The notes beneath the pieces are model-generated. The model was not told the origin of the DNA. It saw nothing but the letters and a program-made list of their open reading frames with translations, and searched no databases. A stretch of DNA of 64,000 nt from an uncultured Candidatus Saccharibacteria bacterium (lineage in GTDB: Bacteria; Patescibacteriota; Saccharimonadia; CAILAD01; BJGX01). Where the stretch lies: assembly GCA_964610335.1 (NCBI GenBank), contig CAZSVP010000001.1, positions 351,442-415,441 on the forward strand, given 5' to 3'. The position numbers and the translations under genes are program-made. Shown in pieces: positions 37,740 to 63,465 of the stretch. The stretch's first letter is position 1. Each line of letters opens with the position of its first letter.

Positions 37740-37810
37740 AGTAGATGCTACTTGCAACAGAGTAGTGATTCGTACTACAATCGATAGCAAATGATAATGA
37801 GGGTACCAAC

Positions 37811-40758: not shown

Positions 40759-40814
40759 TGATTGAGTGCTGACATACCTAGCCAATTGAGCATAAAACGT
40801 GTAGCATAAGTAGT

Positions 40815-41669
40815 ATGCGTGACGCGATACGGGGTTCACTAAAAAAGGTGTTCCGAGGTTTTCATAGTTGGACGGCAGCTATTGTGGCTACCTTGTGTTT
40901 TGGGTTGCTTAGCTTACCCGCTCTGGCAGCCTATGTATCTCAAGGCTATACTACAAAAAGTTCAATACCGGCTGGCTCAATCGTGGCTGTGACAAGAGAT
41001 GATCAAACAGTGGTTGAACTAGCATCACTAGGTAGTGAGAACCCAATTGTGGGTGTGGTAAGTACCGTCAACCAAGGAGTTGTGTCGGTCAATCCAAGCA
41101 GTAGCAATACCCAGGTAATTAGCTCGGGTACTGCCAAAATACTCGCTAGCGACATCAATGGCAAAATCAATCCTGGCGATAGTCTGACGCTGTCACCCAT
41201 TGACGGGGTTGCGATGAAGGCTACCGCCAGCGGCAGCTTGGTAGGGGTGGCTCGCGACAGCAGTGATCAGCTTGAGAATCGAGTGTCACGCCAAATGACC
41301 GACAACACTGGTAAGATTCAGAGTTACAGTATTGGTCTACTCAATAGCGATGTGCAATTGGGCCAGTTTCAGCCGACAGCGAGCCAGAGCGGTTCCAATG
41401 TAGTGACGGGCTTGCAGGCTCTCAGCTCGAATCTTGCTGGCAAGAAACTTACGCCAGTACGAGCTGCTGCTGCGTTTGCCTTGGTGATAATCGCTACAGT
41501 GGCGGCTATGGTAGTGTTGTTCTCGGCAGTTACCTCAAGCATACGCTCAATTGGACGTAACCCACTTGCCAAGCACGCTGTACTGCGTAGTCTGGGCCAA
41601 GTAATACTGGCAGTAGTAATAATAATATTTGCGGCATTCGCCGGCGTGTACATAATAATAGGTGTGTGA
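40815..41669 (+). CDS. membrane protein with an N-terminal signal-anchor, a Ser/Thr/Val-rich ectodomain and a C-terminal hairpin bearing an RNP loop
   Basis: The C-terminal roughly 75 aa (AFALVIIATVAAMVVLFSAV..SIGRNPLAKH..LGQVILAVVIIIFAAFAGVYIIIGV) resemble an ATP-synthase c-subunit hairpin (R-N/Q-P polar loop) but lack a TM2 carboxylate. 4-nt overlap with the alpha-like gene. Confidence 0.55.
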   Translation: MRDAIRGSLKKVFRGFHSWTAAIVATLCFGLLSLPALAAYVSQGYTTKSSIPAGSIVAVTRDDQTVVELASLGSENPIVGVVSTVNQGVVSVNPSSSNTQVISSGTAKILASDINGKINPGDSLTLSPIDGVAMKATASGSLVGVARDSSDQLENRVSRQMTDNTGKIQSYSIGLLNSDVQLGQFQPTASQSGSNVVTGLQALSSNLAGKKLTPVRAAAAFALVIIATVAAMVVLFSAVTSSIRSIGRNPLAKHAVLRSLGQVILAVVIIIFAAFAGVYIIIGV

Positions 41670-43057
41670 TGGAACAGCAAGAATCAGCTAAAATCAAAGG
41701 TATTAATGGATACGCACTCGATGTAGAGCCGATTGATGGTATTCACTTACACGCTACTGTTAGCACTAACTCCGAGCAGCCCGGGCTGGTATATAACGCT
41801 AGTGAAAAAAACATGCGAGTGTTGTCGCTGGAAAGCAGTGAGGTAATAGCTGCTGATAGTTTGCAGCCGCAATTTAGAAGTTTGCAAGTAGCAGTAGAAG
41901 AGAACACTCTCGGCAAGACCCACGCTGTTGGTGAACTATTGCAAAAACAAACCGTCAGTAAATCAGATAAAGTGCATTTACGCCCGGTATTCGGCGACGC
42001 ATTGCCTCTCAACAATCGGGCAGTTGTCAACGAGCAGTTGGAAACTGGTGTTGTGGTAGTGGATTCCCTATTCCCTATCGTAAAAGGTCAGCGTATAGCG
42101 GTGATTGGTGATGCCAAAGCTGGTAAGTCATCTTTTTTGACACAGACTGCGATACACCACCTTACTACTACTAAATCAATAGCTGTATTTGTGGAGATTG
42201 CTAAGCGTAAGCAGGATGTCGAAAGGCTAGCCTTTCGACTCTACCAGGCAGGCGTGATTGATAGAGCAGTAATAGTAGTGGCTGATGCACTCGACAACAT
42301 TGTATTGCAGTACTTGGCACCATTTGTTGGCTGTGCGGTGGCCGAACATTTTTGGGACCAGGGACAAGATGTGCTGTTGGTATATGATGATCTCGCCACG
42401 CATGCCAAAGTATATCGTGAGATGTCATTGCAGCTAGGTCAGCAGCCCGGTCGCGAAAGCTATCCAGCAGACCTGTTTTATATTCACGCTAGTTTACTGG
42501 AGCGTGCCGGTAGGCGAGCCGATACCGGCAAGAGCTTGACTGCTTTCGCAGTGGGGACTACCCCCAACGATGACCTGACCGGGTATTTCCCTACCAATAT
42601 GATATCTACTTCGGATGGGCAGCTTGTATTTGACCTCAAGACTATGCGTTCTGGGATTCGTCCGGCGCTAAATATCGGTTTGTCAGTAAGCCGTGTGGGT
42701 GGAAGAGCTCAAAGCGCCTACTATCAAAATATGTCAGAGCAAATACTACAGTCATTATCCAACTACTCGGCTGTTGAAACTTACGCACGGTTTAATACTA
42801 AGCTGTCTGTAACATCACAGAAGAACTTGGCTATTGGCAAGAAACTGTTTGAATTGTTTTTGCAAGATCAAGCTAGTAGTTTTACATTGGCAATGCAGCG
42901 GGTGATGCTAGAAACAGTTTTCATGAGTGAGCAACCAGAAAAACTCAATATCGCTTGGCTCAAAGACGTGATTGCTGATGTGGTAAAGCCCGAGACAATA
43001 GAGAAAGATTTTCGAGCGCTGGCCAAAGACTTACTTAAGAGTAATCCGGTGGTATAG
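41666..43057 (+). CDS. F1-ATPase alpha-subunit-like protein (divergent)
   Basis: GQRIAVIGDAKAGKSS (the alpha-type non-catalytic P-loop). The block LQYLAPFVGCAVAEHFWDQGQDVLLVYDDLATHAKVYREMSLQLGQQPGRESYPADLFYIHASLLERAGR and IRPALNIGLSVSRVGGRAQ align with canonical AtpA. Confidence 0.8.
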   Translation: MMEQQESAKIKGINGYALDVEPIDGIHLHATVSTNSEQPGLVYNASEKNMRVLSLESSEVIAADSLQPQFRSLQVAVEENTLGKTHAVGELLQKQTVSKSDKVHLRPVFGDALPLNNRAVVNEQLETGVVVVDSLFPIVKGQRIAVIGDAKAGKSSFLTQTAIHHLTTTKSIAVFVEIAKRKQDVERLAFRLYQAGVIDRAVIVVADALDNIVLQYLAPFVGCAVAEHFWDQGQDVLLVYDDLATHAKVYREMSLQLGQQPGRESYPADLFYIHASLLERAGRRADTGKSLTAFAVGTTPNDDLTGYFPTNMISTSDGQLVFDLKTMRSGIRPALNIGLSVSRVGGRAQSAYYQNMSEQILQSLSNYSAVETYARFNTKLSVTSQKNLAIGKKLFELFLQDQASSFTLAMQRVMLETVFMSEQPEKLNIAWLKDVIADVVKPETIEKDFRALAKDLLKSNPVV

Positions 43058-43059
43058 CT

Positions 43060-45215
<2,156 letters not shown>

Positions 45216-45216
45216 T

Positions 45217-45468
45217 ATGGAAGAAGAACGATTCTTGGTAAAAGTATTCTCGCCTTTTGAAGTGTATTATGAGGGCGAAGCATTTAGCTTGTCGGCCACC
45301 AACTCACAGGGGCCATTTGATGTATTGCCTGAGCATGCCAACTTCATAAGTCTGGTTAGCCGTGGCAATGTTACTATTGATACTCCATTTGGGAAGCGAC
45401 AATTTGCTCTAGAGCGCGGCATACTGCGTATCCGTAGCGGTCAAGCGACACTTTTTGCCAACGTATAA
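45217..45468 (+). CDS. F1-ATPase epsilon-subunit-like protein (N-terminal beta-sandwich only)
   Basis: 83 aa. FLVKVFSPFEVYYEGEAFSLSATNSQGPFDVLPEHANFISLV matches the epsilon N-domain pattern. No C-terminal helical hairpin. Confidence 0.5.
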   Translation: MEEERFLVKVFSPFEVYYEGEAFSLSATNSQGPFDVLPEHANFISLVSRGNVTIDTPFGKRQFALERGILRIRSGQATLFANV

Positions 45469-45480
45469 GATGTATCTCGG

Positions 45481-45509
45481 TTGCATTGACTAACCATAAG
45501 CGTTACAAT
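45481..45509 (+). promoter_or_regulatory. sigma70-like promoter upstream of the first fibre-protein gene
   Basis: TTGCAT, a 17-nt spacer and TACAAT. RBS GAGGGAAAAGGG, then GTG at 45543. Confidence 0.45.
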
Positions 45510-45542
45510 TGTTGTAAGAAAACACACAAGTGAGGGAAAAGG

Positions 45543-47882
45543 GTGGACGGACAAACAAACACGCAAAATGTTTCTGTTGAACAGGCTACGTTTTCTGGTC
45601 AGTTGCAAAACCAATCTAGTGGGGCAACGGCTTCAGTTGATAATACTGAGATAGCCAGACTACATCGCCGTAATCGTTTTTTTCAAGCGCTTTGGATAGC
45701 GGCGGGTATTTTATTACTTCTGCTATTTGCGACGGCGTCAATATTGATATGGCGAAATCGCTCGCAAGTATCCCAGCTGACCAATGCATCGGAGCGCTAT
45801 AAGCCTGTAAATCTCAATCTTTCTGGCCAGCCATTGCAAACTGGTTTGCAAGGTGTACTGGCGGTCAATGGCGATATTACGGCTACTGGTACTGTTAGCG
45901 CTGCTAACTTGCAGGGTAGTGGTAGCGGTATTACTGACTTGCAGGCCAACAACATCGTCGGTGTACTTCAACCAGGTCAGCTTGATCCATTTATAGCCTA
46001 CACCAACAAGAACTTCCAGGCCTTCACAGGTACCAATCAAGTATTTCGTAACAGTTCCAACTCAGTATCGGCATTTTCTGTCCAAAACGCATCGGCCGCA
46101 CCAGTTTTGAGCGTGAGTACGGCCAGTAACTTTGTAGGAGTTAATACAAGTGTGCCATCTGTTACAGGCCTAAGCCTGGAGGTGAATGGTACTGCCAAAG
46201 TTGATAACTATCTATTGGTGGGGGCACAGTCAACACCAAACACATCAATTCTTGATACTGGTCCACTATTCTCAAACGATGATATACAAAGAATCCTAGC
46301 CGTTCAACAAATATCATCAAACAATCCAAATGCAAACAGCATATTTGTGGGTACTGCCAATGAGCTACTAGCCAACCCCCAATACGATCCCGTTATTCTG
46401 GGCTCTTTTCTTGGGTTTACTACCGTAGCTGGTGGTAACAAAAATATATATGCAGGCAGCTATTCTGCTTTGCAAACAGATAAGACAAATTCCAAGGATT
46501 TCTATCTAAATGGTGGTGTTATGAACTCAGTTACTCATTCAGGTAGCGGAACCGTATTTATGCAAGCTGCTCAACTCAATACTGTTGCCAATCTCGGTGC
46601 GGGGGAAATCGCTTATGCTTTTGGTAGTGCGACTATCCCAGTTACTTACAATGGCCCAGGTACTCCTGTAAACTATATGCAATTCTACTCAGGCAATACT
46701 ATTGTTGATCCTCAAGATCCCTCACTTGGTTTTCTAGGTTTTCCCACCATATACCAAGCTGGCTCAATTGGTCGACAAGTAGGTATAGATATCCAATATC
46801 AACAAAGCGGTACAATAGGAAGCGCCAATCTAGTATCTGAAGGATATTTGAGTAAGAATTACTTTGAAGGGAATGTGTCTATTGGCTCTTGTGCAGCCAA
46901 TCTTACACCGAGTTCAATTCTTGGGACTACTGCTTGTATAACTGGTCTCGATCCAATTCCAGGGGGTAATAAGTTGTCAGTGAACACTTCGGCGCCTTCG
47001 ACTGCCTCAGCTCACATTAATACTGCTGTAGCATCAGATAAGGCGTTGGTGGTCAAAGGAGTTACCAGCCAAACAGGTAATCTTACTGAGTGGCAAAACT
47101 CATCTGGGACAGCACTTAGTAGAGTAACTGCCGACGGGTCATTTAATATTGGCTCAGGCGCGCCGACTAATCGGCTTAGTGTTGTTGATACTTCCGACGA
47201 TACAGTAGCTAACTTCACAGGTTTTACCCAAACCTGTACCGTAGATACATCAGGCGCTGGTGGCTGGTCTTGTTCTTCAGACGAGCGTCTCAAAGAGAAT
47301 ATCGTGAAATTGGATGGTGGCCTCGATACGATTATGCAACTGCGAGGGGTCACATATAACTTCAAGAGCAATCCAGACGGAGACGCAATTGCTGGATTTG
47401 TTGCTCAGGAGGTTGAGAAAATACTGCCTGGGTTAGTTGCTACCGGAGCTGATGGTTATAAATCTCTCAATAAGGACGGTCTAATCCCCTACCTTGTCAG
47501 TGCTATCCAGGATCAACAAAAACAAATTGATACTCTTAAGAATCCGGCCGGAGGAGTAAGTGTGGATGTGCTCAAGACTCTCGCCGACAGCAAAGCCGTG
47601 GAATTTGGTGGTGACTTGACTGTGAATGGTAGCGTGATTATTAAGGGTACATTGGCTGGCAATGTCAATACTCGTGGTACGGTAGTGATTCCGGCTGGCC
47701 AGACATCTGGTGGCTATAGTTTTACTACTGCGTACTCGAAGACTCCAAATATAGTAGTAAGCCCAAGCTCTGATACCGGTGGTCGGTATTGGCTTAAGAG
47801 TAAATCTGCTAGTGGATTTACAGTAGAGCTCGAAGCCGCTCAAGCTACAGATGTAAAATTCGATTGGCAAGCCCAAGAATAG
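45543..47882 (+). CDS. membrane-anchored tail-fibre-like surface protein with a C-terminal intramolecular-chaperone (peptidase S74-like) domain, paralog 1
   Basis: N-terminal signal-anchor (FFQALWIAAGILLLLLFATASILIW). Long Gly/Asn/Thr/Ser-rich repeats. C-terminal SCSSDERLKENIVKLDGGLDTIMQLRGVTYNFK...GFVAQEVEKILPGLV, matching the self-cleaving chaperone domain of phage tail fibres/tailspikes. Confidence 0.8.
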   Translation: MDGQTNTQNVSVEQATFSGQLQNQSSGATASVDNTEIARLHRRNRFFQALWIAAGILLLLLFATASILIWRNRSQVSQLTNASERYKPVNLNLSGQPLQTGLQGVLAVNGDITATGTVSAANLQGSGSGITDLQANNIVGVLQPGQLDPFIAYTNKNFQAFTGTNQVFRNSSNSVSAFSVQNASAAPVLSVSTASNFVGVNTSVPSVTGLSLEVNGTAKVDNYLLVGAQSTPNTSILDTGPLFSNDDIQRILAVQQISSNNPNANSIFVGTANELLANPQYDPVILGSFLGFTTVAGGNKNIYAGSYSALQTDKTNSKDFYLNGGVMNSVTHSGSGTVFMQAAQLNTVANLGAGEIAYAFGSATIPVTYNGPGTPVNYMQFYSGNTIVDPQDPSLGFLGFPTIYQAGSIGRQVGIDIQYQQSGTIGSANLVSEGYLSKNYFEGNVSIGSCAANLTPSSILGTTACITGLDPIPGGNKLSVNTSAPSTASAHINTAVASDKALVVKGVTSQTGNLTEWQNSSGTALSRVTADGSFNIGSGAPTNRLSVVDTSDDTVANFTGFTQTCTVDTSGAGGWSCSSDERLKENIVKLDGGLDTIMQLRGVTYNFKSNPDGDAIAGFVAQEVEKILPGLVATGADGYKSLNKDGLIPYLVSAIQDQQKQIDTLKNPAGGVSVDVLKTLADSKAVEFGGDLTVNGSVIIKGTLAGNVNTRGTVVIPAGQTSGGYSFTTAYSKTPNIVVSPSSDTGGRYWLKSKSASGFTVELEAAQATDVKFDWQAQE

Positions 47883-47904
47883 TTGTTTTAGTCTTCCAAA
47901 GCCC

Positions 47905-48504
47905 TTATACTACTAACATAACAGCTTTGGAAGAGCGTGGAACAACAGAGTAATACAACACAACAACCCCAATACGAGGAAGTAGATAAGAAGTCACATT
48001 GGCTCATCTGGCTATTAGTCGGTTTAGCAGCCCTCTTTCTTGTAATCATAATTATCTTACGTGGTCTCTGTACTGATGTATGGTATATCCGGATGCTTGG
48101 TCTCAATGATCGCTGGTGCCCATCACCTGCTAGTAGTTTGGTCGGTAAGACAGATCTTGCTGATGGTAGTGTGACTGGTAAGAAGGTAGCCTCTGAGACT
48201 ATTACTGTCAGCAACCTTTCTCAACCCATCCAGCAGTTCATTACCAACACCGAGCAAACACTTCAGCAAATAACTCAACAAATCTCTCAGGTATCCAATG
48301 TCCCTGGCCCTGCTGGCCCAGTCGGTGCCACTGGTTTGCAAGGTGCTACCGGTCCAACTGGAGCTACCGGTGCAACTGGTGCCACTGGCCCTCCCGGACC
48401 AGCTGAGCCGATTACTTCCAATGTTCTCAACTCAGCTGGCAACTCTCTAGACTCTACTGTCAATGGAGTGGGCTCTAATGTAGTGAGTATTATTAATTCG
48501 AATA
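47905..48504 (+). repeat. direct repeat copy A (about 600 bp, near-identical to 51289-51888): leader plus the 5' 190 codons of a fibre paralog
   Basis: Direct reading shows matching sequence from atactactaacataacagctttggaagagcgtggaacaac... through ...gtgagtattattaattcgaata at an offset of 3384 bp. Confidence 0.85.
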
Positions 48505-51269
48505 CCGCCACCCTGACCCAAGCCGGTGGCCTTACTTCAACCGTCAACGGTGTAGTTGCCAATCAAACCATTGGTGCTGGTACTACTGCTCAGCTTCTTG
48601 GTTACGATGGTGCCGGTAATGCAGTTTACCAGTCTGTTGCTGGTATTTTATCTGGCAATACTACCAATTCACTAGCTTGGGCACAGGGCACAGCAACTCT
48701 TACTAGTACGGTCAATGGTGTAGCTAGCAACGTGGTACTTAGTTGCCCTACTACCACTACTTTCATATGTCAAAACGGTAACTCACTAGCAGGTACTATA
48801 ACAGTCGGAAGCAATGACTCTAACTCCCTGGCTTTTGAAACTGCTGGCCTTACACAGGCAAGTATTGCAGTGGGTGGAGCTACTTCCTTCCAAAACACCA
48901 CCAACTCTACAAATGCCTTCCGAGTCATTAATGCCGCTGGCACCAATACACTTCTTACAGTAGATACTACCAACAATCGTGTAATCATTAGTTCAGGGAC
49001 ATCCATTACTAGTCCAGGTACTGGTAGTAACTCTGAGAAGTTTGGCCTCAATGCAAGTGTGGGGGCAAATGATAATGCTGTGGCAGTTGGTAATGCGGCA
49101 ACAGCTGCCGGTATAGAATCTGTTGCGATTGGTAGAAGTACTAGTGCAGGCACTGGAAGTGTGGTGATTGGCTTCGGCACATCCACTGCTAGCACTAATA
49201 GTGTCACTATTGGACATAGCTTAACAGCAAGTGGTTCAAATACGGTCACAATTGGATCTTCAAACACTGTGGGCAACAACAATAATGGTGTAGTGGTAGG
49301 GTATAACAATACTACCTCGCCAAGTGGCGGGTACGCGATAGCGGTGGGCCGAGATAACACCTGTCTAAATGCTTGTTTTGGAGCATTCAATATTGTCTCA
49401 GATCTTGGGGCAAATAACCGAACGACGATTGGATTTAACAACACTGTCTCACAGTCTTCAAACGCTATCACTGCTGGGTATTTGAATACTATGTCATCGG
49501 GCACCAATGCTCAGATTTATGGTACTAGCAATGACTACACCGGCAATGGTTCGAATGGTTTTGGTGGAATCTTCGGGTATAACAACACGATTGATGGCAG
49601 TGGTGTAAATACAGGAGTAGGTTCTTACGCGGTGGGTATAGGTAATAGTATTGTAGTTACATCTAGTGGTGATGGTGACGCATTTGCATTTGGCAAAAAT
49701 AACAATATCACCGCACCAGGCGCAATTGCCCTTGGGGATACCAATACAGTAGCAGCGCAAAATGGAATATCGCTTGGAATGAACAATAGTGCAACTTCAA
49801 ACAATTCCAATGCTATTTCCATAGGGCAGGGCAATACTCATGCTCAAAATCGAGACAACTTTACACTGATTGGTTTCAATAATGTGGCTGGCGGCACCAA
49901 CTCTACTGACGGATTAGCTATCGGCACAGGCAACACTGCTCAAGATCGAGGCGCATCTATTGGACGTAATAACACGCCAGGTGGTGAAGATAGCTACGTA
50001 TTCGGTAATGGTAATACCCCATTTGGTCAATTTAGTTATATCTTTGGTGGATCCAACACTGGTAGCGGTGGAAACAATAGCGGCACTACAGCACTGTTAG
50101 GGTTTAGTAACAACATCGTTCAAAACTCTACGCAAGCCGACGACGTTTTGGTGGGTAGTGACAACAATGTCACTATTAATTCCGCGAACAATGTAAATTA
50201 TATCTTCGGCGAGAATAATACAATGAACCACACGATCGTTAACGGTAACGGCTATATTATTGGTGGCAATAACACCATCAGTGCAGCTGGGTCTTCAGAA
50301 GATTTTGCTATGGTTATAGGCAACGGCATAACCAACTCAACCTCACAAACTATACAAATCGGGCTTTCCAACGCGGGCAAGGTTACTTTCACTAGCGGCG
50401 GATCAGTAGATATAGGTGCGGCTACGACACCAACACACAAGCTTACGGTAACCGATACCACCACCACTGATGTTGCTCGTTTCAATGGTAGCGCCGGCAC
50501 TCAGTGTACTGTAGTCGCGGGTACTGGCTGGAGCTGTACTAGTGACGACTCGCTTAAAGCCAACGAAGTAAGTATGGATGTGATAGGAACACTCGCCAAG
50601 CTAGGCGCCTTGCGCCCTGTAACCTATCAATGGCAGGGTGATTATGACCAGTGGGTGGCAAATGGCTCAATTCCTGGTGACGAGCCAGATATGCAATACG
50701 GCTTTATAGCCCAAGAGGTAGAAAGCATTTTCCCTGAAGTGGTCAGTACTGATGCTGTCACTGGATTGAAATCGATTAATTACGGCCGACTCAATACATT
50801 TATGATCGCAGCACTCAAAGAAAATTATGGTCTTATCAGTAACTTCCAGAATACATTTACATTTCCAGACGCCTCTACCGTACAAGTTTCGCGTAAGTTA
50901 ATTGCCGACGGTGGTATTGAAGTACCTGGTACAACTGAGCTTAACGGCGCCACAACTGTGAATGCCTTACTAACCATCAACGGTGCAGTGCAGTTCAATG
51001 GTGCGGCTACATTTGATAGTACTAGCAGGTTCAATGGCCGGGCAGAGTTTGGATCCAACAATACTGGTACCACTACTATTACGGCTGGTGCAACCAGCGT
51101 GTCTGTGCCATTCCCCACCACGTTTACATCAGTGCCTACAGTAACAGTAACTCCTGCTAACTTTATTACCGGCCAGTATCGATACACGGGAGTTACAACC
51201 TCCGGTTTTACTATTGAGCTAGATACACCCCAAGCTGCAAACACTACCTTTAGTTGGCAAGCCTTCTAG
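47937..51269 (+). CDS. membrane-anchored collagen-like / tail-fibre-like surface protein with a C-terminal S74-like chaperone domain, paralog 2
   Basis: GTG start. TM anchor [21 protein letters not shown]. Gly-X-Y tract [32 protein letters not shown] (nt 48304-48402). About 700 aa of GN/NT-rich repeats. C-terminal [13 protein letters not shown]...[16 protein letters not shown]. Confidence 0.8.
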
Positions 51270-51288
51270 ATATCATACGCAGTAGTTG

Positions 51289-51888
51289 TTATACTACTAA
51301 CATAACAGCTTTGGAAGAGCGTGGAACAACAGAGTAATACAACACAACAACCCCAATACGAGGAAGTAGATAAGAAGTCACATTGGCTCATCTGGCTATT
51401 AGTCGGTTTAGCAGCCCTCTTTCTTGTAATCATAATTATCTTACGTGGTCTCTGTACTGATGTATGGTATATCCGGATGCTTGGTCTCAATGATCGCTGG
51501 TGCCCATCACCTGCTAGTAGTTTGGTCGGTAAGACAGATCTTGCTGATGGTAGTGTGACTGGTAAGAAGGTAGCCTCTGAGACTATTACTGTCAGCAACC
51601 TTTCTCAACCCATCCAGCAGTTCATTACCAACACCGAGCAAACACTTCAGCAAATAACTCAACAAATCTCTCAGGTATCCAATGTCCCTGGCCCTGCTGG
51701 CCCAGTCGGTGCCACTGGTTTGCAAGGTGCTACCGGTCCAACTGGAGCTACCGGTGCAACTGGTGCCACTGGCCCTCCCGGACCAGCTGAGCCGATTACT
51801 TCCAATGTTCTCAACTCAGCTGGCAACTCTCTAGACTCTACTGTCAATGGAGTGGGCTCTAATGTAGTGAGTATTATTAATTCGAATA
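51289..51888 (+). repeat. direct repeat copy B (about 600 bp)
   Basis: See copy A. The two copies diverge immediately after aattcgaata. Confidence 0.85.
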
Positions 51889-54326
51889 GTTTGGTAAATA
51901 ATGGGGTGAATACTCTCACTTCTACTATCAATGGTGTGGCCGACTCGGATCCAATAGTTAACACAGTTTCTAACTCCTCGGCAGTGAACACACTGACCAC
52001 TACCGTAAATGGAGTAGCTGGCGTAGGTGTATCAATAATTAACAGCAATAGTCTTTCGTTGATCGGCAATAACTTAACATCAACGGTCAATGGCATAGCA
52101 AGCTCAGCACTGGACCTAAGTACTGTCCAGCCTACTACTTGCTCGAGCTCGAGTCAGTACTTCTGTCAAAACGGTAACTCGTTTGGGTCTACTGCGGTGA
52201 TAGGCACCAACGATGCTAACGCCTTGAGGTTTGAGACCGCAGGCACTAGCCGTATCGAGCTTACAACTGCTGGCCACCTTACACCACTTGTAGATGATGC
52301 TCAAGATCTTGGTAGCAGCGTACTGCGTTGGCGCGACTTATACTTAGGACCCGGCACGCTAAATATCGGCTCAAATGCTAGCAACTATGGCATCTCGTTT
52401 GATACTACTGGAGTTGGTAGCTTGGTCTTCAACGAGAATGGCGACGATACCGATGTGCGAATAGAGGGTGACACTGAGGCCAATCTGGTATTTGTTGATG
52501 CTTCTGCTGGTAGAGTTGGCATAGGTACTAACGCACCAGCGGCTTCACTTCATGTTGTGGGTAATATTACTAGTCCGGGCACTGGTAGTAACTCTGAAAA
52601 GTTTGGATTGAACGCGAGTGTTGGAGCAAATGACAACGCTGTTGCGATTGGTAATGCTGCGACAGCGGGAGCTATAAGTAGTACTGCCTTAGGTAGGAGC
52701 GCTAACGCGTCTGGCTCTGGTGCAATAGCAATTGGACAGGGAGCATCTACTGGTTCTGCACAGGCGATTGCAATTGGCCAGGGTCAGGGCGCTGGAGCAA
52801 ACTCTATCCAGATTGGGACAGGGAATAGTAGTTCCAATAATAGTGTAATTTTGGGTACTAGCAATTCAACCAATCGTCACTCACAAATTATTCTAGGTAA
52901 TTCCAATAGTAGCTTTGCTAACGATAGCGTGACAATTATTGGTCACAGCAGCTCCGCAAACTCTGGAGTTGTAATTGGTGATTCTAACACTGGTGGCCGA
53001 GGAGCAATTATAGGCGCTAGTAACACAAATGATACAAATTCTGGTATTAGCTATATATTTGGTGCTAGCAACACAACCAGTGGTATACAAAATGGCCTTC
53101 TACTCGCTGGCCAATTAAATAGTATTACTTCAGCTTATAATTCTACTGCCGTCGGTTTTTCCAACACTGTTACCGGTGCTGGCTCCAATGCCTCAAACGG
53201 TGCATTTGGAAGAAGCAATGTGGTAGATACTTCACTTAATGGCAACAATGGTGGCGGATCGTTTGCATTTGGTTTTAGTAATAATATAACTGATGATGGG
53301 ACAGTCTTGGGTGGCACCAACTCATTTGCTTTTGGTGGCAGTAATTCTATCACCAAAAGCAACGCGTTCGTAGTTGGAAGGAATATTACTAATTCTACTA
53401 ACAACAATATGGAGATAGGGCTGAGCAATGCTGGCAAAATCAGCATCACTAGTGGTGGTTCAGTCGATATCGGTGGTGCAACCGCTCCTACAAATAAGCT
53501 AACCGTTACAGATACTACTACTACCAACGTTGCTCGGTTCAACGGCAGTGCCGGTACCCAGTGTACAGTTGTGGCAGGAACAGGACTGAGTTGTACTAGT
53601 GATGTATCACTAAAAGCTAATGTTTTAGACATGAATATAGTTGGTAGCCTAGCCAAGCTCGGTGCACTTAAGCCAGTCACTTACCAATGGAAAGGAGACT
53701 ATGATCAGTGGGTAGCTAATGGTTCAATCCCTGCATATGAGCCTGGTACTCAATATGGTTTTGTTGCTCAAGATGTTGAGACCGTTCTACCCGAGGCTGT
53801 CGAGACGGACCCTATCACTGGGCTTAAAATGATTAACTATGGCAAGCTCAATACATTTATGGTAGCTGCACTTAAGGAAAACTATGGCTCGATCCAGGCA
53901 TTTCAATCTACGTTTGATCTTTCTAGCCCTACTGTTGTGGGTATAAACCGCAACATTGTTGCTTCAGGCTCACTTGCAGTAGATGGTGCTGCTGTATTCA
54001 ATGGAGCAGTTACTCAAAATGGTTTAAACACCTTCAACTCTTCAGTTAGTTTTGTTGGTACTGCCAACTTTGATGGAACGACTAACGTAAACGGTCGCTT
54101 GCAACTTAGTAATAACAATACTGGATCTGCTACTGTCACAACTGGCAATAGTAGTGTTCATGTGAATTTTCCTACCTCGTTTGCTAGTGCGCCAAATGTA
54201 AATCTTACCCCTCAAGATTTTGTTAATGGCCAGTATAGAGTGACCAATGTTGGCGCTGCTGGCTTTGATATTGAGCTAAGCCAGGTACAAGCAGGCAATA
54301 CGTCGTTTTACTGGCAAGCTTTCTAG
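51321..54326 (+). CDS. membrane-anchored collagen-like / tail-fibre-like surface protein with a C-terminal S74-like chaperone domain, paralog 3
   Basis: First roughly 190 aa are identical to paralog 2. Divergent central repeats. C-terminal SCTSDVSLKANVL...YGFVAQDVETVLPEAV. Confidence 0.8.
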   Translation: MEQQSNTTQQPQYEEVDKKSHWLIWLLVGLAALFLVIIIILRGLCTDVWYIRMLGLNDRWCPSPASSLVGKTDLADGSVTGKKVASETITVSNLSQPIQQFITNTEQTLQQITQQISQVSNVPGPAGPVGATGLQGATGPTGATGATGATGPPGPAEPITSNVLNSAGNSLDSTVNGVGSNVVSIINSNSLVNNGVNTLTSTINGVADSDPIVNTVSNSSAVNTLTTTVNGVAGVGVSIINSNSLSLIGNNLTSTVNGIASSALDLSTVQPTTCSSSSQYFCQNGNSFGSTAVIGTNDANALRFETAGTSRIELTTAGHLTPLVDDAQDLGSSVLRWRDLYLGPGTLNIGSNASNYGISFDTTGVGSLVFNENGDDTDVRIEGDTEANLVFVDASAGRVGIGTNAPAASLHVVGNITSPGTGSNSEKFGLNASVGANDNAVAIGNAATAGAISSTALGRSANASGSGAIAIGQGASTGSAQAIAIGQGQGAGANSIQIGTGNSSSNNSVILGTSNSTNRHSQIILGNSNSSFANDSVTIIGHSSSANSGVVIGDSNTGGRGAIIGASNTNDTNSGISYIFGASNTTSGIQNGLLLAGQLNSITSAYNSTAVGFSNTVTGAGSNASNGAFGRSNVVDTSLNGNNGGGSFAFGFSNNITDDGTVLGGTNSFAFGGSNSITKSNAFVVGRNITNSTNNNMEIGLSNAGKISITSGGSVDIGGATAPTNKLTVTDTTTTNVARFNGSAGTQCTVVAGTGLSCTSDVSLKANVLDMNIVGSLAKLGALKPVTYQWKGDYDQWVANGSIPAYEPGTQYGFVAQDVETVLPEAVETDPITGLKMINYGKLNTFMVAALKENYGSIQAFQSTFDLSSPTVVGINRNIVASGSLAVDGAAVFNGAVTQNGLNTFNSSVSFVGTANFDGTTNVNGRLQLSNNNTGSATVTTGNSSVHVNFPTSFASAPNVNLTPQDFVNGQYRVTNVGAAGFDIELSQVQAGNTSFYWQAF

Positions 54327-54378
54327 ACATCTGCATCTGGTAGCTGCTATACTACTACCATAACAACTTTGGAAGAGT

Positions 54379-57036
54379 GTGGAACAGAATAACAATACAA
54401 TACAAAACCAGCAAGGGCCTCAATATGAGGAAACTACCAAACAATCACATTGGCTGATTTGGCTACTCATAGGCTTAGCTTTTCTCTTCTTAATCATCAT
54501 AATAATCTTACGAGGCCTCTGTACTGATGTCTGGTATATCCGGATGCTCGGACTCAATGACAAGTATTGTAGTAGTGCAACTAGCTTACCTAATGCCAAC
54601 AACCAAACTAATCCTAGACTGTCTCTTTCTGGAGCCACTCTTACAGTATCTACCAGTGGTGGTAACCAAAGTATGGTAGACCTCTCTAGTTTGTTACAGC
54701 CAGGTGCCACCGGCCCTGCTGGTCCGGCTGGTGCCAATGGGTTTAACGGCTTCAATGGTAGTACTGGTGCGACAGGTGCAACTGGGGCAACAGGACCTGC
54801 TGGCCCCACCGATCCGTGTGTGAGTGCTGGTACTTACTTCTGTCAAGGTGGAAACACTTACGGTACCACAGCCTTACTAGGCACCAATGACGCACAGGAT
54901 TTGCAAGTGCGTACGGCTGGGACGAGTTCGCTCAACATAGACACACTAGGCAACTTAGTTGCTAACAAAGTCGCGACCCTCGGTGCTTATGGGCAGGCCA
55001 CATTTACGGGGCTGTCTGGTAGCAATATAGTTATTCCTACTGGCGATTTGGCACCAGGAGTTTCAACCTTTACTGATTCCAGCGCGAATATTTTACAGAC
55101 TGAGTCAGCTACACTCATCGGCTCCAACCACAACATGGGTTGGGCCATTAATTCAACCTTGACTGATACCAACAATAATCTAATGTACGCCATAGGCAGT
55201 AATATAAATGGTGGCTATGGGTTTGTGGGGCAATTCGTGGGAGCTTCGATTAGTGGGTCTAGTAATTTGCTAGGTCAATTTGGTAGTCCTGGATTTTTGC
55301 CCACAGTGGTTACTAATAGTAGTAATATTCTTGGTAGTGCAAAATCCGGCACTAGTATTACCAATAGCAGTGATGCATTTCTTAGCTTACAAAATAGCAG
55401 CACAGTAAATCTAGTCACAAATAGCATACTGCGCTTAGACAATGGTACAGCAAATGTTGTTGATCGCTCGATTATTCAAGATGATAATGGTAGTTTTACA
55501 AATGTTCTTGCGGCAGTAGCAAACGGTAGCAATATATCACTAACCAATGTTTTTAATGGTGCTTATTTGGGGACAGGCCTAACAGTAACTGATGCCGATC
55601 GATCTGCTATTACAGGAGTTGGTGTGACCGCAAATGACCTGGTAAACACTAACGCTACAGGTTTTGGGTTGGGTCTGAACAATGTTCACTGGAGTAATAT
55701 CAACGGTTTCAACGCTGATCTTACTGATGTAACTTGGAGTAATTTATTGATTGACGGGGGCTTAGGTGGAACTACCATTCTTGATGTGAGCCACTATACA
55801 GGAGAATTTCTAGGAGACAATACTATTTCTGGTATTTATACAGGTACTGGTATAGTTAGCGACTCTACTGTCAACAATAGTGGTGGCCTTACCGGCATGT
55901 TTACTTTGGCAAATGTAGATAATACAGAAAACATTGTTGGTCATTTTGGTGGGTATTGTAATGGTACGGCTCCTGACGGCCCATTTGGATGTAATGTTGG
56001 TTACAATATCGAGTTTGATCTTCATGATAGCGGCGGCATTGTAGGAATTGCTAGGTGGACTAACATATACAACTCCGGTAGTAGCTTTTTCAACTTGGAT
56101 TCAGCCGACCCGCTTGTATTTGCCTCAGGCGTTACTGGAGTTAATAATAGCTACGTAAATGGTACGGATTTAACACTTGATACTGTAAACTCCAGTATTT
56201 TGGCATCTAGCTTTTCGAGTATTCAACAGTCTACTAGCTTGTTGGCTCTCGGCTCAGACTTGGATCTTAATGGCCTAGACCATGCAATCTTCACAGGCGA
56301 GAATGCGACTATCTCGGATGTCGGTGTAGGCAACTACGACTACTCATTCATCGGCACAGATAGTGCCGGAAATATTAACACACGAATCGGCAACAAAGGC
56401 CAGGACTCGTGGACAAATCTCAGTGGCGGCAACGTCGGTATTGGCACCAACACTCCTACCAGTACCGCTGCTTCTGGAAACCTTGAAGTAGCCGGTAATA
56501 TAAGAGTAGATGGTATAGGTGGTGGCCCATCAGCCAGTACAGTTTGTGTTAATGGCACCAACGATCTCGTACTTTGTTCTTCCTCGGCTCGCTACAAAGA
56601 GAATGTCCAAGAATTATCACTTGGCCTAGAGACATTGATGCAACTCAAAGCTGTTTCATATGATTGGAAAGAAGACGGTACTCATGATCTAGGATTCATA
56701 GCCGAAGACACAGCTGCTATTAGTAGCTTACTTGCTACCTACAATAACCAAGGTGAGATTCAGGGTGTTAAATACGACAAGCTAACAGCAGTAATCACCA
56801 ATGCTGTCCAGCAGCAACAAGGCAAGATTGAAGATATTAACAAACAACTTGCAGCTCAAGGGTTGAGTATTGATGAGTTGAGCGACGAGCTTAAGAAAGT
56901 TATTGGCCGAGTTGATACGCTAGAATCTGAAGTTCAAGACCTCAAGGACCAGGTTAAACAGTTACAAAAACAGGTCAATATCTCGACTGACTCAACAACA
57001 ACACCCAAGAACCCCAACCCTACCACTACTCCTTAG
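54379..57036 (+). CDS. membrane-anchored collagen-like / tail-fibre-like surface protein, paralog 4, with a C-terminal S74-like domain plus a coiled-coil tail
   Basis: Related N-terminus ([23 protein letters not shown]). Gly-X-Y tract [65 protein letters not shown]...GFIAEDTAA. Terminal coiled coil and a TTTPKNPNPTTTP tail. Confidence 0.8.
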   Translation: MEQNNNTIQNQQGPQYEETTKQSHWLIWLLIGLAFLFLIIIIILRGLCTDVWYIRMLGLNDKYCSSATSLPNANNQTNPRLSLSGATLTVSTSGGNQSMVDLSSLLQPGATGPAGPAGANGFNGFNGSTGATGATGATGPAGPTDPCVSAGTYFCQGGNTYGTTALLGTNDAQDLQVRTAGTSSLNIDTLGNLVANKVATLGAYGQATFTGLSGSNIVIPTGDLAPGVSTFTDSSANILQTESATLIGSNHNMGWAINSTLTDTNNNLMYAIGSNINGGYGFVGQFVGASISGSSNLLGQFGSPGFLPTVVTNSSNILGSAKSGTSITNSSDAFLSLQNSSTVNLVTNSILRLDNGTANVVDRSIIQDDNGSFTNVLAAVANGSNISLTNVFNGAYLGTGLTVTDADRSAITGVGVTANDLVNTNATGFGLGLNNVHWSNINGFNADLTDVTWSNLLIDGGLGGTTILDVSHYTGEFLGDNTISGIYTGTGIVSDSTVNNSGGLTGMFTLANVDNTENIVGHFGGYCNGTAPDGPFGCNVGYNIEFDLHDSGGIVGIARWTNIYNSGSSFFNLDSADPLVFASGVTGVNNSYVNGTDLTLDTVNSSILASSFSSIQQSTSLLALGSDLDLNGLDHAIFTGENATISDVGVGNYDYSFIGTDSAGNINTRIGNKGQDSWTNLSGGNVGIGTNTPTSTAASGNLEVAGNIRVDGIGGGPSASTVCVNGTNDLVLCSSSARYKENVQELSLGLETLMQLKAVSYDWKEDGTHDLGFIAEDTAAISSLLATYNNQGEIQGVKYDKLTAVITNAVQQQQGKIEDINKQLAAQGLSIDELSDELKKVIGRVDTLESEVQDLKDQVKQLQKQVNISTDSTTTPKNPNPTTTP

Positions 57037-57054
57037 TTTTTCAGGTTAAAATGC

Positions 57055-57083
57055 TTGCTTCCAACCTGTTGAGTAGGTATAAT
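57055..57083 (+). promoter_or_regulatory. sigma70-like promoter for gyrBA
   Basis: TTGCTT, a 17-nt spacer and TATAAT, 72 nt upstream of the gyrB ATG. Confidence 0.45.
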
Positions 57084-57149
57084 AGTAGTATAACTGAGAG
57101 CTAACTATAGCTTATGTTTTATTTGTCTAAATGTAGGGTGATATACTAG

Positions 57150-59219
<2,070 letters not shown>

Positions 59220-59227
59220 GGAATACC

Positions 59228-61756
59228 ATGAGTGAATTACCAGAAGAGAAAATAAAGGCCTTCGACAACGAGAACTTTGAACCGCAAAAAACAGAGTTTG
59301 GTTTGATTGCGCCAAAGACAGTTGAGTCTGAGATGGAGAAGAGTTATCTCGATTATGCTATGAGCGTAATTGTTTCTCGTGCTTTGCCTGACGTACGTGA
59401 TGGTATGAAACCGGTACATCGTCGCATCATGTACACCATGCTACAAGAGGGGTTGCGCTCCAACTCCAAGTATCGTAAGAGTGCCAACACTGTTGGTGTA
59501 GTAATGGCTAAATACCATCCTCATGGTGATGCTGCTATCTACGATTCTATGGCTCGCATGGCGCAATATTGGTCGATGCGCTACATGCTGGTAGATGGTC
59601 AAGGTAACTTTGGTTCAATGGATGGCGATGCACCAGCTGCTATGCGATACACCGAAGCACGTATGACCAAGGTGGCAGAGGAAATGCTTCAAGATATCGA
59701 GAAAGAAACTGTAGACTTTGCACCCAACTACGATGGCAGTCAACGTGAGCCAAAGGTATTGCCAGCCAAGCTGCCAAACTTGTTGCTCAATGGTGTGCAG
59801 GGTATCGCTGTTGGTATGGCCACCAATATCCCAACTCACAACCTTAGTGAAGTGATTGATGGTGTGATTTGTTTGATCGATACTCCCGAGGCAGGTGTGC
59901 TGGAACTCACCAAGATAATCAAAGGGCCAGACTTCCCTACCGGTGGAATTATTTTTGATGATGGCTCTATAGCCCAGGCTTATGGCACTGGTAAGGGTAG
60001 TATTGTAATGCGAGCAGTTGCAGAAATAGAAGAGGATAAGAAAGGCCGTGAGCGGATTGTAATTACTGAGATCCCCTATCAAGTAAATCGCGCAACATTG
60101 ATCGAGAAGATAGCAGAACTGCATCGCGACAAGAAAGTAATGGGTATTGCCGACCTTCGTGATGAGTCTGCCAAAGAAGATGTTCGTATAGTCATAGAAC
60201 TCAAAAAAGATGCTTACGCCAACAAGCTGCTCAATCAGCTATACAAGCTTACACCAATGCAGACAGCTTTCCATGTCAATATGCTGGCTTTGGTAGATGG
60301 TATCCAGCCCCGCGTATTGAATCTCGAAATGGTACTACGTGAGTATCTAAAGCATCGTCAAGCAGTGGTTCGACGTCGAACCGAGTTTGAGTTACGCAAA
60401 GCCAAAGATCGCGCTCATATACTAGAAGGCTTACGAATTGCTCTGGACCAAATCGACAAAGTAATCTCAACTATTCGAGAATCTGATACTCAAGACGAGG
60501 CTCGAGCAAACTTGATGAGCCGGTTTAAACTTACTGAGATCCAAGCCAACGCAATTCTCGCCATGCAGCTACGTACACTGGCTGGGCTAGAGCGTAAGAA
60601 GATTGAAGACGAATACGAAGAGCTTCAAAAACTTATTAAGCAGCTCGAGGGTATATTAAGTAGTGAAGCCAATATTCTCAAAGTTATTCGTGAAGAATTG
60701 GTTGAGATGAAAGAAAAGTACGGCGACAAGCGACGTACTCAGATTATCAAAAAAGCAATTGGCAACTTTAGCGACGAAGACCTTATACCCGATGAAGAAG
60801 TAATAATTACTCTTACCAAAGGTAACTATATCAAGCGAATTCCAGCCAATACTTATGCCAGCCAGGGACGTGGCGGCAAAGGTAAGATGGGCATGACCAC
60901 CAAGGAAGAGGATGTCGTAGAGCACTTAGTACACGCTAACTCTCACAATACTATCTTGTTCTTTACCTCAGCAGGTAGAGTGTTCAAACTCAAGGCCTAC
61001 GAGCTTCCACCTGCCTCACGAGTAGCTAAGGGTGCTTCGATCATGAATGTTCTCAACCTCAGCCCAGACGAAAAAGTCACTGCTCTAGTAGGCCTAACCA
61101 AGGATGACCCAACTCAGTATTTGTTTATGGCAACTCGTGGTGGTACTATCAAAAAAACAGCTCTCAAAGATTTTGCGAATATTCGTACCAATGGCATAGT
61201 GGCTATCAAACTTGACCAGGGCGATGAGCTACGTTGGGTGAAGAAGACAACTGGCAAAGACGAAGTGATTATCTCAACCGCTATGGCCCAGGCAATTCGC
61301 TTTAAGGAAACTGATGTTCGTCCAATGGGTCGAGCCACTCGTGGTGTTCGTGGCATACGTTTGCGAAGCGAGGATAGCGTGGTGGGAGTAGATGTGATTG
61401 GTAGTACAGAGGCTGTTATGCTTGTTGTTATGAAGAATGGTTATGGTAAGCGTACCAGTTCTTCACAATTTACTACTCACAATCGTGGTGGTGTTGGCAT
61501 CCGGGCTGGCGTGGTGACCAAGAAGACTGGCAAGGCGCTTGATGTTCGTATCACCAACAATGATAACGCCGATGTGCTGCTTATATCCAAGCAAGGTCAA
61601 GTAATTCGTCTGCATCTCAAGGCAATTCCTAAGATAGGACGTTCAACTCAGGGCGTACGAATCATGCGACTAAACGAAAACGATGAGATTGCCTCAGTGG
61701 CTGTACTTGAAGAAGTAGAAGAGATTGCAGAAAAGGAAACTTCGGCCAAAGAATAA
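59228..61756 (+). CDS. gyrA: DNA gyrase subunit A
   Basis: N-terminal YAMSVIVSRALPDVRDGMKPVHRR (the QRDR region), the catalytic Tyr region, and a C-terminal beta-pinwheel with a GyrA-box-like QGRGGKG. Confidence 0.95.
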   Translation: MSELPEEKIKAFDNENFEPQKTEFGLIAPKTVESEMEKSYLDYAMSVIVSRALPDVRDGMKPVHRRIMYTMLQEGLRSNSKYRKSANTVGVVMAKYHPHGDAAIYDSMARMAQYWSMRYMLVDGQGNFGSMDGDAPAAMRYTEARMTKVAEEMLQDIEKETVDFAPNYDGSQREPKVLPAKLPNLLLNGVQGIAVGMATNIPTHNLSEVIDGVICLIDTPEAGVLELTKIIKGPDFPTGGIIFDDGSIAQAYGTGKGSIVMRAVAEIEEDKKGRERIVITEIPYQVNRATLIEKIAELHRDKKVMGIADLRDESAKEDVRIVIELKKDAYANKLLNQLYKLTPMQTAFHVNMLALVDGIQPRVLNLEMVLREYLKHRQAVVRRRTEFELRKAKDRAHILEGLRIALDQIDKVISTIRESDTQDEARANLMSRFKLTEIQANAILAMQLRTLAGLERKKIEDEYEELQKLIKQLEGILSSEANILKVIREELVEMKEKYGDKRRTQIIKKAIGNFSDEDLIPDEEVIITLTKGNYIKRIPANTYASQGRGGKGKMGMTTKEEDVVEHLVHANSHNTILFFTSAGRVFKLKAYELPPASRVAKGASIMNVLNLSPDEKVTALVGLTKDDPTQYLFMATRGGTIKKTALKDFANIRTNGIVAIKLDQGDELRWVKKTTGKDEVIISTAMAQAIRFKETDVRPMGRATRGVRGIRLRSEDSVVGVDVIGSTEAVMLVVMKNGYGKRTSSSQFTTHNRGGVGIRAGVVTKKTGKALDVRITNNDNADVLLISKQGQVIRLHLKAIPKIGRSTQGVRIMRLNENDEIASVAVLEEVEEIAEKETSAKE

Positions 61757-61953
61757 CAAATCGCTATTGCTTGACTTACTTAGTTGCAAAGGCGTATAAC
61801 AACAATCATACCGAAAAAAGTTTGGTAAAAAACAAAGAATTATTGGAAATTGTATTGCACCTTTTTTAAGACCTTTGGTATAGTCAGTATAGACATGGTT
61901 GATTTCTTTCTAGGAAGGGCGGCTCAATCAATGTTTTCACTAAGGAGTAATTT

Positions 61954-63365: not shown

Positions 63366-63465
63366 CAGTACTGGACCCTTCGTGGGTCCATCTCGGTGAT
63401 GTCAATCATCGAGATGGGCTCGAGAAAAGCCCAAGAAAATAATTAATGATAGGAGGTGAAAACCT

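Follow-up and report, generated by a model that had tools for sequence, protein, structure and literature searches.

An exact 600-nucleotide repeat shared by two tandem Peptidase_S74 fibre genes in a Candidatus Saccharibacteria chromosome

The fibre-gene array and its exact repeat

We analysed a 64,000-nucleotide (nt) stretch of contig CAZSVP010000001.1 from an uncultured Candidatus Saccharibacteria bacterium (positions 351,442 to 415,441; this whole stretch is hereafter the window, and coordinates are given within it). Between the ATP synthase operon and gyrB/gyrA of this chromosome lie four tandem Peptidase_S74 fibre genes, F1 to F4, the second and third of which share an exact direct repeat at their 5' ends:

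45543..47882, + strand: F1, 779 amino acids (aa); transmembrane (TM)-anchored S74 fibre protein by prediction; Pfam Peptidase_S74 56 bits; conserved first gene of the array
47937..51269, + strand: F2, 1110 aa; anchor/stalk, TVNGV repeats, YadA-like beta-roll head, S74 domain, H-lectin-like C-terminus
51321..54326, + strand: F3, 1001 aa; F2 architecture with a different stalk and head
54379..57036, + strand: F4, 885 aa; diverged anchor module, different head, S74 domain, coiled-coil C-terminus
47905..48504, + strand: repeat copy 1, a 32-nt leader and F2 codons 1-189; exact match to 51289-51888
51289..51888, + strand: repeat copy 2, the identical leader and F3 codons 1-189
54348..54560, + strand: diverged leader and 5' module, reaching from the spacer before F4 into the gene; 77% identical to 47906-48109 in BLASTN; repeat family D2

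Ungapped comparison at an offset of 3384 nt finds 600 of 600 nt identical between 47905-48504 and 51289-51888, without a single mismatch, and the edges are sharp, with the first mismatches at 47904 and 48505. A BLASTN self-comparison of the region 43-62 kb likewise recovers the repeat as 100% over 600 nt, and an exact 600-mer of this kind cannot have arisen by chance in 64 kb. Each copy comprises the leader TTATACTACTAACATAACAGCTTTGGAAGAGC and 568 coding nt that open with a GTG start. The coding part corresponds to residues 1-189 of both F2 and F3, and in the codon alignment of the two genes these residues are the same at every position, third positions included. The original prediction had described the leader and about 570 coding nt of the genes at 47937 and 51321 as near-identical; the identity is in fact complete, and the common ribosome-binding-site context that it quoted for F2 and F3, their abrupt divergence after ...ATTAATTCGAATA and the diverged version of the leader at the fourth paralogue (the 77% match listed above) all proved correct.

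Given that the source is a metagenome-derived 420-kb contig and that exact repeats longer than the reads are hard to resolve, the identity could in principle be an artefact, either of polishing that homogenised similar 5' modules or of alleles of co-existing strains (F2 and F3) that were joined in tandem. The outer boundaries speak against this. Logan contigs derive from k=31 unitigs, and two such contigs of run SRR14932608 match the window at 100%: L017 spans 35543-47934 and stops 30 nt into copy 1, while L016 spans 51859-64000 and begins 30 nt before the end of copy 2. If k=31, contig ends 30 nt inside the repeat are the k-1 overlap at a graph branch, which implies two upstream and two downstream contexts in the reads; given such unitigs, the outer repeat boundaries are real at the read level. 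The contig of a third strain (L019) also ends 30 nt into the shared leader, at CATAACAGCTTTGGAAGAGCGTGGAACAAC. The anticipated proneness of the repeat to assembly collapse is thereby borne out, as an independent short-read assembly breaks exactly at its boundaries. Furthermore, in the deposited contig the unique 3' end of F2 and a 19-nt spacer (51270-51288) join the repeat, a junction that the allele model fails to predict, and a tandem pair with shared 5' modules is also found in the related locus L001, where the genes lie on a single contig at 84% identity and collapse is impossible. On this evidence we regard an artefact as very improbable.

Architecture of the fibre proteins

Repeat copy 1 encodes a cytoplasmic tail, a TM helix, a juxtamembrane motif, a further helix, a collagen-like GXY run and the first TVNGV..IINSN unit, so that the 600-nt repeat encodes the anchor and stalk of the fibre proteins. 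The features within the two copies are as follows:

48000..48086, + strand: TM helix (aa 22-41) and juxtamembrane signature, copy 1; helix 22-43 in the AlphaFold2 (AF2) model; motif invariant in family alignment A2
51384-51470, + strand: TM helix and juxtamembrane signature, copy 2; counterpart of 48000..48086
48306..48404, + strand: collagen-like run of 11 GXY triplets, copy 1; Pfam Collagen 22 bits (sub-threshold); Tandem Repeats Finder period 9/18/27
51690-51788, + strand: collagen-like run, copy 2; counterpart of 48306..48404

The same N-terminal layout is seen throughout F2-F4: a short polar tail, a hydrophobic helix (aa 22-41), the invariant juxtamembrane motif, a predicted helix (aa 96-117) and 11-12 GXY triplets, followed by TVNGV...IINSN repeat units and then a long region rich in glycine and asparagine. 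The N-terminus of F1 differs from these and is without the LRGLC motif. From 1.84 billion proteins, a profile of the N-terminal module retrieves no more than 38 cluster representatives (E <= 1e-3); the module is a rare, lineage-restricted anchor.

At the other end, all four proteins match Peptidase_S74 (PF13884) with scores above the Pfam cutoff of 22 bits (F1 56.2, F2 41.5, F3 45.6 and F4 41.6). The Ser-Lys motif SDxxxK, as defined in PMC10769870, takes the form SDERLK (aa 579) in F1, SDDSLK (aa 869) in F2 and SDVSLK (aa 760) in F3, and in F4 it is SSARYK (aa 735), with the Ser and Lys retained and the Asp replaced. By homology to this domain the four proteins would undergo S74 self-cleavage, and the position of the motif predicts that self-release would yield C-terminal fragments of 201 (F1), 242 (F2), 242 (F3) and 151 aa (F4).

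For the variable middle, searches against the Protein Data Bank (PDB) relate the F2 head to the YadA head (1p9h, E 6.5e-5) and to UspA1 (3ntn, E 7.5e-3); the YadA-type matches to family models are below the respective cutoffs (NCBIfam YadA 25 versus 750 bits; Pfam YadA_head 16.8 versus 25 bits), as are those to the H-type lectin domain (PF09458; 19.0 and 17.0 bits, Pfam cutoff 24). The AF2 model of F3 is poor overall, with a mean predicted local distance difference test score (pLDDT) of 52.8. It places the TM helix at 22-43 and a helix at 96-117 in the N-terminal part, regular short strands at 430-700 (pLDDT 70-80), the S74 domain over 770-860 and, at 930-1001, a C-terminal beta-sandwich that is predicted with confidence (C-terminal domain pLDDT 82-93). 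In Foldseek the S74 part of this model recovers the MyRF ICA domain and the endosialidase chaperone (ICA/ICD structures 7dc3 and 3gw6), and the end domain recovers, with weak E-values, R-pyocin fibre tips and H-type lectins (the latter 4q56, 2ce6 and 3wmp; E 0.03-0.09). The region after S74 is an H-lectin-like domain in F1-F3 and a coiled coil in F4. NCBIfam gave no family name for F1-F4. Together, these domain homologies suggest that F1-F4 are membrane-anchored, phage-fibre-like or adhesin-like proteins that would be displayed on the cell surface, are probably trimeric and may act in attachment to a host bacterium.

Older homology between F2 and F3

Beyond the repeat, F2 and F3 can be aligned in a short junction block and again near their 3' ends:

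49005..49105, + strand: conserved junction block at the start of the F2 beta-roll head; 83% DNA identity to 52566-52666
52566..52666, + strand: conserved junction block of F3; BLASTN match to 49005-49105
50358..50830, + strand: F2 part of the 3' similarity, covering neck and S74 chaperone domain; 70.5% identical in nt to 53415-53887
53415..53887, + strand: F3 part of the 3' similarity, covering neck and S74 chaperone domain; counterpart of the F2 part

The original prediction held the 3' ends to be highly similar and read conserved ends around variable middles as a mark of recombination or gene conversion. A block of similarity does exist, but its extent was overstated: BLASTN gives 70.5% over 474 nt, and in the best-conserved part of the codon alignment, where amino acid identity is 74-86%, third-codon identity is only 0.30-0.34, that is, saturated. 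Moreover, the F3 3' module is 68-71% identical at the amino acid level to genes in other genomes as against 59% to F2. With saturation at synonymous sites, and with an F3 3' module that resembles genes of other genomes more than F2, the 3' similarity does not reflect recent exchange; the conserved 3' end is best understood as an S74 chaperone module of old homology that is held by protein constraint.

The junction block tells a similar story, with 32 of its 33 residues identical between F2 and F3 and yet only 17 of the 32 corresponding codons identical. As about half of the codons for identical residues differ, the block is old. The possibility that 49005-49105 represents a second recent conversion tract was considered and is ruled out by the 15 of 32 synonymous codons that differ.

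Related arrays and the origin of the repeat

The array occupies a conserved site. The atp genes are also found upstream in L001, L005, L017, L019 and L020, and the gyr genes downstream in L001, L016 and L018. In L001 three genes (788, 981 and 933 aa) follow atp and precede gyrB and gyrA; in L005 atp is followed by genes of 2342 and 930 aa; and the arrays of some relatives, for example L003, hold up to five or more genes. Homologues of F1 (43-96% identity) sit at the same array position in relatives, with close relatives in other samples at 92-96% identity. A pattern search in which each species was represented by one genome located the N-terminal signature solely in metagenome-assembled genomes (MAGs) of Candidatus Saccharibacteria or MAGs labelled 'bacterium'. 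In scans of metagenomes the exact 38-nt leader pattern had 0 matches and the protein pattern recovered only two short loci, L014 and L015. A phage or prophage origin of the fibre genes is ruled out by the housekeeping flanks, the lack of virion genes and the atp-fibre-gyr synteny across Saccharibacteria MAGs; in view of this context and conserved synteny, they are chromosomal genes of Candidatus Saccharibacteria for what appear to be membrane-anchored surface proteins. As a separate observation, giant first fibre genes of 2632 and 2342 aa replace the ~780-aa F1 type in L002 (2035-9933) and L005 (2901-9929), with internal direct repeats of 70-95%.

Comparison of F2 with its relatives reveals a switch at the right boundary of the repeat. 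Residues 1-189 are 100% identical to F3 and 54-62% identical to the related proteins P0002, P0003 and P0007, whereas the next 101 residues (190-290) are 75-82% identical to these three and only 31% to F3. The change of nearest relatives across this boundary implies that F2 and F3 are old paralogues or differently derived genes, of which only the 5' module was recently made identical. Comparable patterns are present in other genomes: genes 2 and 3 of L001 share their leader and 5' end at 84.5% over 420 nt and have 3' modules that are 30% identical at the amino acid level; L007 and L008, which are contigs of a single MAG, are 84% identical over 730 nt of the 5' module; and genes 3 and 4 of L003 share 71% over 558 nt at the 5' module. 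Overall, 5' modules cluster by genome (window versus L001 61-63% nt identity) and 3' modules cluster by type. Because same-genome paralogues elsewhere share 5' modules while 3' modules group by type, the anchor module would seem to evolve in concert, episodically, and then to decay, with the heads and 3' modules retaining their own histories.

The closest comparison is with the sister strain represented by L020 (SRR23867504), whose atp operon is 94.7% identical to that of the window. L020 and the window keep the same order over the upstream genes, F1 and the first 1.2 kb of F2. This collinearity ends at window position 49102, the end of the conserved junction block, where a different head type follows, and the spacer after the stop codon of this L020 fibre gene is 95% identical to the F3-F4 spacer of the window, so that L020 has one gene in place of F2 and F3. 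Comparison of the array among related strains, which had been suggested as a check, thus shows that both gene number and head type differ. The 5' module of L020 matches the window repeat at 569 of 600 positions (94.8%), as against 600 of 600 between the two window copies, and the homogenisation, or the gain of a second copy, therefore postdates the split of the strains. F1 is only 84.1% identical to its L020 counterpart (L020 10001-12337) and the F2 segment after the repeat 87.8%, below the value for the atp operons; the fibre genes evolve markedly faster than their housekeeping flank. In another relative, L018, gyrB/gyrA are 85% identical to those of the window, and the gene upstream of its F4 orthologue carries the 3' module closest to that of window F4 (L018 1522-2119 versus window 56271-56868, 80% identity), a region in which L018's own F4 orthologue is unaligned. 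This pattern implies that 3' modules (S74 and coiled coil) are also exchanged between paralogues.

The single gene of L020 between F1 and the F4-type spacer, against two in the window, raises the alternative of a recent gene gain, either by a tandem duplication through unequal crossing-over between leaders or by integration of a foreign fibre gene via its 5' module after natural transformation, with the identical 5' module as the footprint of that event. The F3 head, which has no close relative (best match 43%), the mosaic nature of the heads with their switch at the 49005-49105 junction, the shuffled 3' modules of L018, the natural competence reported in Saccharibacteria (PMC10633639) and the barely alignable sequence on both sides of the identical block all fit such a scenario. 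A plain duplication, however, would leave whole genes identical, and here only 600 nt are so; the saturated synonymous divergence of the 3' end and the affinity of the F3 3' module to other genomes call for at least one further replacement step; and distant relatives already possess multi-gene arrays with partly homogenised 5' modules, for which repeated conversion is simpler. We hence consider gene gain unlikely, if worth serious attention.

Instead, we propose that the 600-nt identity is probably, though by no means surely, the product of recent gene conversion or an equivalent ectopic recombination between tandem paralogues of an adhesin array that is mosaic. As a mechanism this is ordinary, and recombination of this type, as the original prediction had supposed, best explains why 189 codons match exactly when only about half of the codons for identical residues match elsewhere. 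Under this proposal, non-reciprocal homologous recombination, or its ectopic equivalent, would have made the leader and anchor/stalk of F2 and F3 identical very recently, after the split from the sister strains; the same process would have homogenised the 5' modules of same-genome paralogues in other Saccharibacteria genomes; and the heads and 3' modules would keep their own histories, being shuffled at conserved junctions.

Several points weigh against this proposal or temper it. The conversion mechanism is one that we infer; it could have run in either direction, and a history of duplication plus replacement could equally underlie the pair. The one gene that L020 has for F2 and F3 makes a recent gain in the window lineage possible as well. 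The identical block is flanked on both sides by barely alignable sequence, unlike a classical conversion tract within longer diverged homology. The identity inside the repeat rests on one assembly, in which polishing could have erased a few real differences. Finally, the trimeric state, cleavage and adhesion of the proteins all derive from domain homology, with a poor AF2 model and with H-lectin and YadA matches below curated thresholds.

Comparison with known systems

The closest functional analogue of F1-F4 is the MAT (mosaic adhesive trimer) family of Bdellovibrio bacteriovorus. MAT proteins are trimeric fibres on the cell surface that combine a conserved proximal end with diversified tips and in many cases terminate in an S74 domain bearing SDxxxK (Caulton et al. 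2024, PMC10769870). Like the MAT proteins, F1-F4 are chromosomally encoded, phage-tail-fibre-like candidates for surface proteins of ~1000 aa, from a bacterium that, as Bdellovibrio does, lives on other bacteria. The likeness extends to one conserved end that would serve retention on the cell, diversified distal parts, an S74 domain with SDxxxK in many members, lectin-type folds (here putative) among the tips and multiple paralogues per genome. Unlike MAT, the N-terminus of F2-F4 consists of an uncleaved-looking TM helix, juxtamembrane motif, helix and collagen-like segment, and by the AF2 model and sequence, set apart without direct comparison to MAT sequences, the F-proteins have no beta-rich N-terminal domain such as the one of ~130 aa that follows the signal peptide in MAT. 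Further differences are the YadA-like beta-roll head, the extra domain after S74 in F1-F3, the tandem arrangement of the genes with apparent concerted evolution of the anchor module, and the organism, a monoderm bacterium of the Candidate Phyla Radiation (CPR). Saccharibacteria are not among the MAT-like proteins listed in PMC10769870, and the literature searched yielded no account of Saccharibacteria with S74 or collagen-like fibres; the family is an apparently undescribed, moderately interesting variant of phage-fibre-like adhesins.

With phage tailspikes and tail fibres of the endosialidase K1F type, the F-proteins share the S74 domain with its Ser-Lys motif, as well as the fold match to 7dc3 and 3gw6. 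Phage receptor-binding proteins have a classical modular layout in which an N-terminal module for attachment and a C-terminal chaperone, both conserved, enclose a variable middle, and the F-proteins are laid out likewise. They differ in that their N-terminus is a predicted membrane anchor rather than a baseplate adaptor and in that their genes lie outside a phage. Trimeric autotransporters such as YadA and UspA1 provide a possible parallel for the YadA-like repeats of the variable middle, and UspA1 and UspA2 are known for modular exchange between paralogues. Saccharibacteria, in turn, are regarded as monoderm, without an outer membrane. Unlike trimeric autotransporters, the F-proteins have no match to the YadA C-terminal beta-barrel anchor in Pfam or NCBIfam, and they are oriented the other way round: the anchor is N-terminal and the trimerisation chaperone C-terminal.

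In terms of genome dynamics, tandem surface-protein paralogues under concerted evolution by gene conversion are known from the streptococcal mrp-emm-enn genes and from uspA1/uspA2 of Moraxella. The array resembles these in its tandem fibrous adhesin-like genes, homogenised leader/anchor modules, variable middles and chimeric genes among strains; it differs in protein family, anchoring mode and phylum, and here it is the N-terminal anchor and stalk that are homogenised. Cassette systems (Neisseria pilE/pilS, Borrelia vlsE and Anaplasma msp2) also use gene conversion among copies of surface-protein genes. In those systems, however, silent cassettes that have no promoter donate sequence to the variable region of a single expressed gene, whereas in the window the invariant module is converted and all four genes are complete and look expressible, with a start codon, a Shine-Dalgarno (SD) sequence and a conserved leader. 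Because a conserved module is converted and all copies are complete genes, the pattern differs from cassette antigenic variation, and the antigenic-variation type of conversion that had been suggested, of the kind seen in pilE or vlsE, does not hold, since the homogenised stretch is the invariant anchor and stalk and not a variable region.

A broader form of programmed variation can be envisaged, in which the repeats are kept identical for reversible deletion or amplification of the 3384-nt unit, or for head swaps, as a means of phase or antigenic variation. RecA-dependent deletion or duplication proceeds efficiently between identical direct repeats that lie 3.4 kb from each other, gene number and head type do differ between strains about 5% apart, and surface adhesins are typical targets of such variation. 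On the other hand, there are no silent cassettes, as all paralogues are full-length genes that each possess a start, an SD and a conserved promoter-like leader; inverted repeats of an invertible segment are absent; no recombinase or reverse transcriptase was found in a Pfam scan of most window open reading frames (ORFs) of at least 100 aa; and 5' modules elsewhere have decayed to 71-84%, which argues that identity is not actively maintained. Deletion of F2 would, moreover, create no new k-mer, so that nothing in the available data shows variants within the population. Programmed variation accordingly strikes us as improbable. Two specific forms were rejected: invertase-type switching, for which the window contains no supporting inverted repeats, and a diversity-generating retroelement target, given that the repeat is exact and that no reverse transcriptase is found among the Pfam-scanned window ORFs. 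Variation in receptor specificity through the array would be plausible.

The repeat itself has practical implications. If made by gene conversion, as we favour, it provides a clean natural case of such an event whose age can be set against the split of strains; it offers recombination a substrate for deleting or duplicating 3.4 kb; and it fragments short-read assemblies exactly at the fibre locus. Host recognition and binding by the ultrasmall Patescibacteria is largely unknown, with only type IV pili and a few predicted adhesins implicated so far (PMC11623550; PMC10633639), and a Tn-seq study of Southlakia mentions other predicted adhesins (PMC10633639). A mosaic, fast-evolving S74 fibre array at a conserved site offers concrete candidates for host specificity in one Saccharibacteria lineage, and the family may bear on host recognition by episymbiotic CPR bacteria more generally, extending to the CPR the Bdellovibrio theme of phage-fibre-like adhesins in bacteria that prey on bacteria. 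Tentatively, and with considerable doubt, we raise the possibility that these arrays are the host-recognition apparatus of an episymbiotic Saccharibacteria lineage, in which fibres similar to phage receptor-binding proteins, anchored in the symbiont membrane, would bind host glycans through YadA-like heads and perhaps lectin-like ends, and recombination would furnish a host-range toolkit. If so, the anchor and stalk kept uniform by gene conversion would be a common socket for heads swapped between paralogues and strains at conserved junctions, in a manner analogous to Bdellovibrio MAT fibres and to module swapping in phage tail fibres.

Leaders and a potential regulatory hairpin

The spacers upstream of the fibre genes contain a recurrent motif, TATACT-N5-7-CATAA-N3-4-TTT(T)G(A/T)GAG, which is present in most fibre-gene spacers examined, both in the window and in distant relatives, and TATACTACTAMCATAACARCTTTGGAAGAGYGTG is common to all three window spacers. 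The relevant positions are:

47883..47945, + strand: F1-F2 spacer, with -10-like TATACT at 47906-47911, at the left repeat edge, and a strong hairpin
47906-47936, 51290-51320 and 54348-54378: leader motif sites in the window
L001 6864-6955 and 9890-10009; L002 9931-10009 and 12800-12855; L003 6659-6728; L005 9927-10009: leader motif sites in relatives

The shared motif before the fibre genes points to a separate conserved promoter or leader for every gene, and it could represent a common promoter or regulatory element of the fibre family. Promoter and terminator scans were no richer than shuffles (20 versus 23 and 8 versus 8.2, respectively), and for TATACT only its conserved position in each spacer is suggestive.

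The F1-F2 spacer folds at -21.2 kcal/mol (z -4.05) into a hairpin that the F2-F3 and F3-F4 spacers do not have. In this hairpin 47892-47901, which lies outside the repeat, forms pairs with the repeat's own SD region CTTTGGAAGA; the arms are UCUUCCAAAG just beyond the repeat edge and CUUUGGAAGA of the SD region within. In a read-through transcript from F1 it would mask the ribosome-binding site of F2.

Other genes in the window

The immediate neighbours of the array are housekeeping genes identified with Pfam:

41666..45468, + strand: ATP synthase alpha, gamma, beta and epsilon genes, directly upstream of F1
57156..61756, + strand: gyrB and gyrA, directly downstream of F4

Elsewhere the window encodes ribosomal protein L20, IF3, tmRNA, SmpB, a class I aldolase and several glycosyltransferases, as well as ArgRS, TrpRS, PheS, PheT, a UvrD-type helicase and RmuC. 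Next to the ATP synthase genes, on their upstream side, the region 35235-40132 codes for a homologue of VirD4/TraD-like coupling ATPases (834 aa; DUF8128 in the precomputed annotation) and for a surface protein with PKD/DUF11 repeats (773 aa), and this arrangement is kept in the sister strains L017, L019 and L020. Within the PheT ORF (30489-33224, 911 aa), the B3_4 and B5 domains are separated by a cell-wall hydrolase domain of the NlpC/P60 type (aa 447-564, E 2e-17), an unusual insertion for a tRNA synthetase. The tmRNA gene lies at 14086-14477 and encodes the tag peptide AKSLMRDLVNAVKVNELAPAYA, with SmpB about 5 kb away at 19136-19579.

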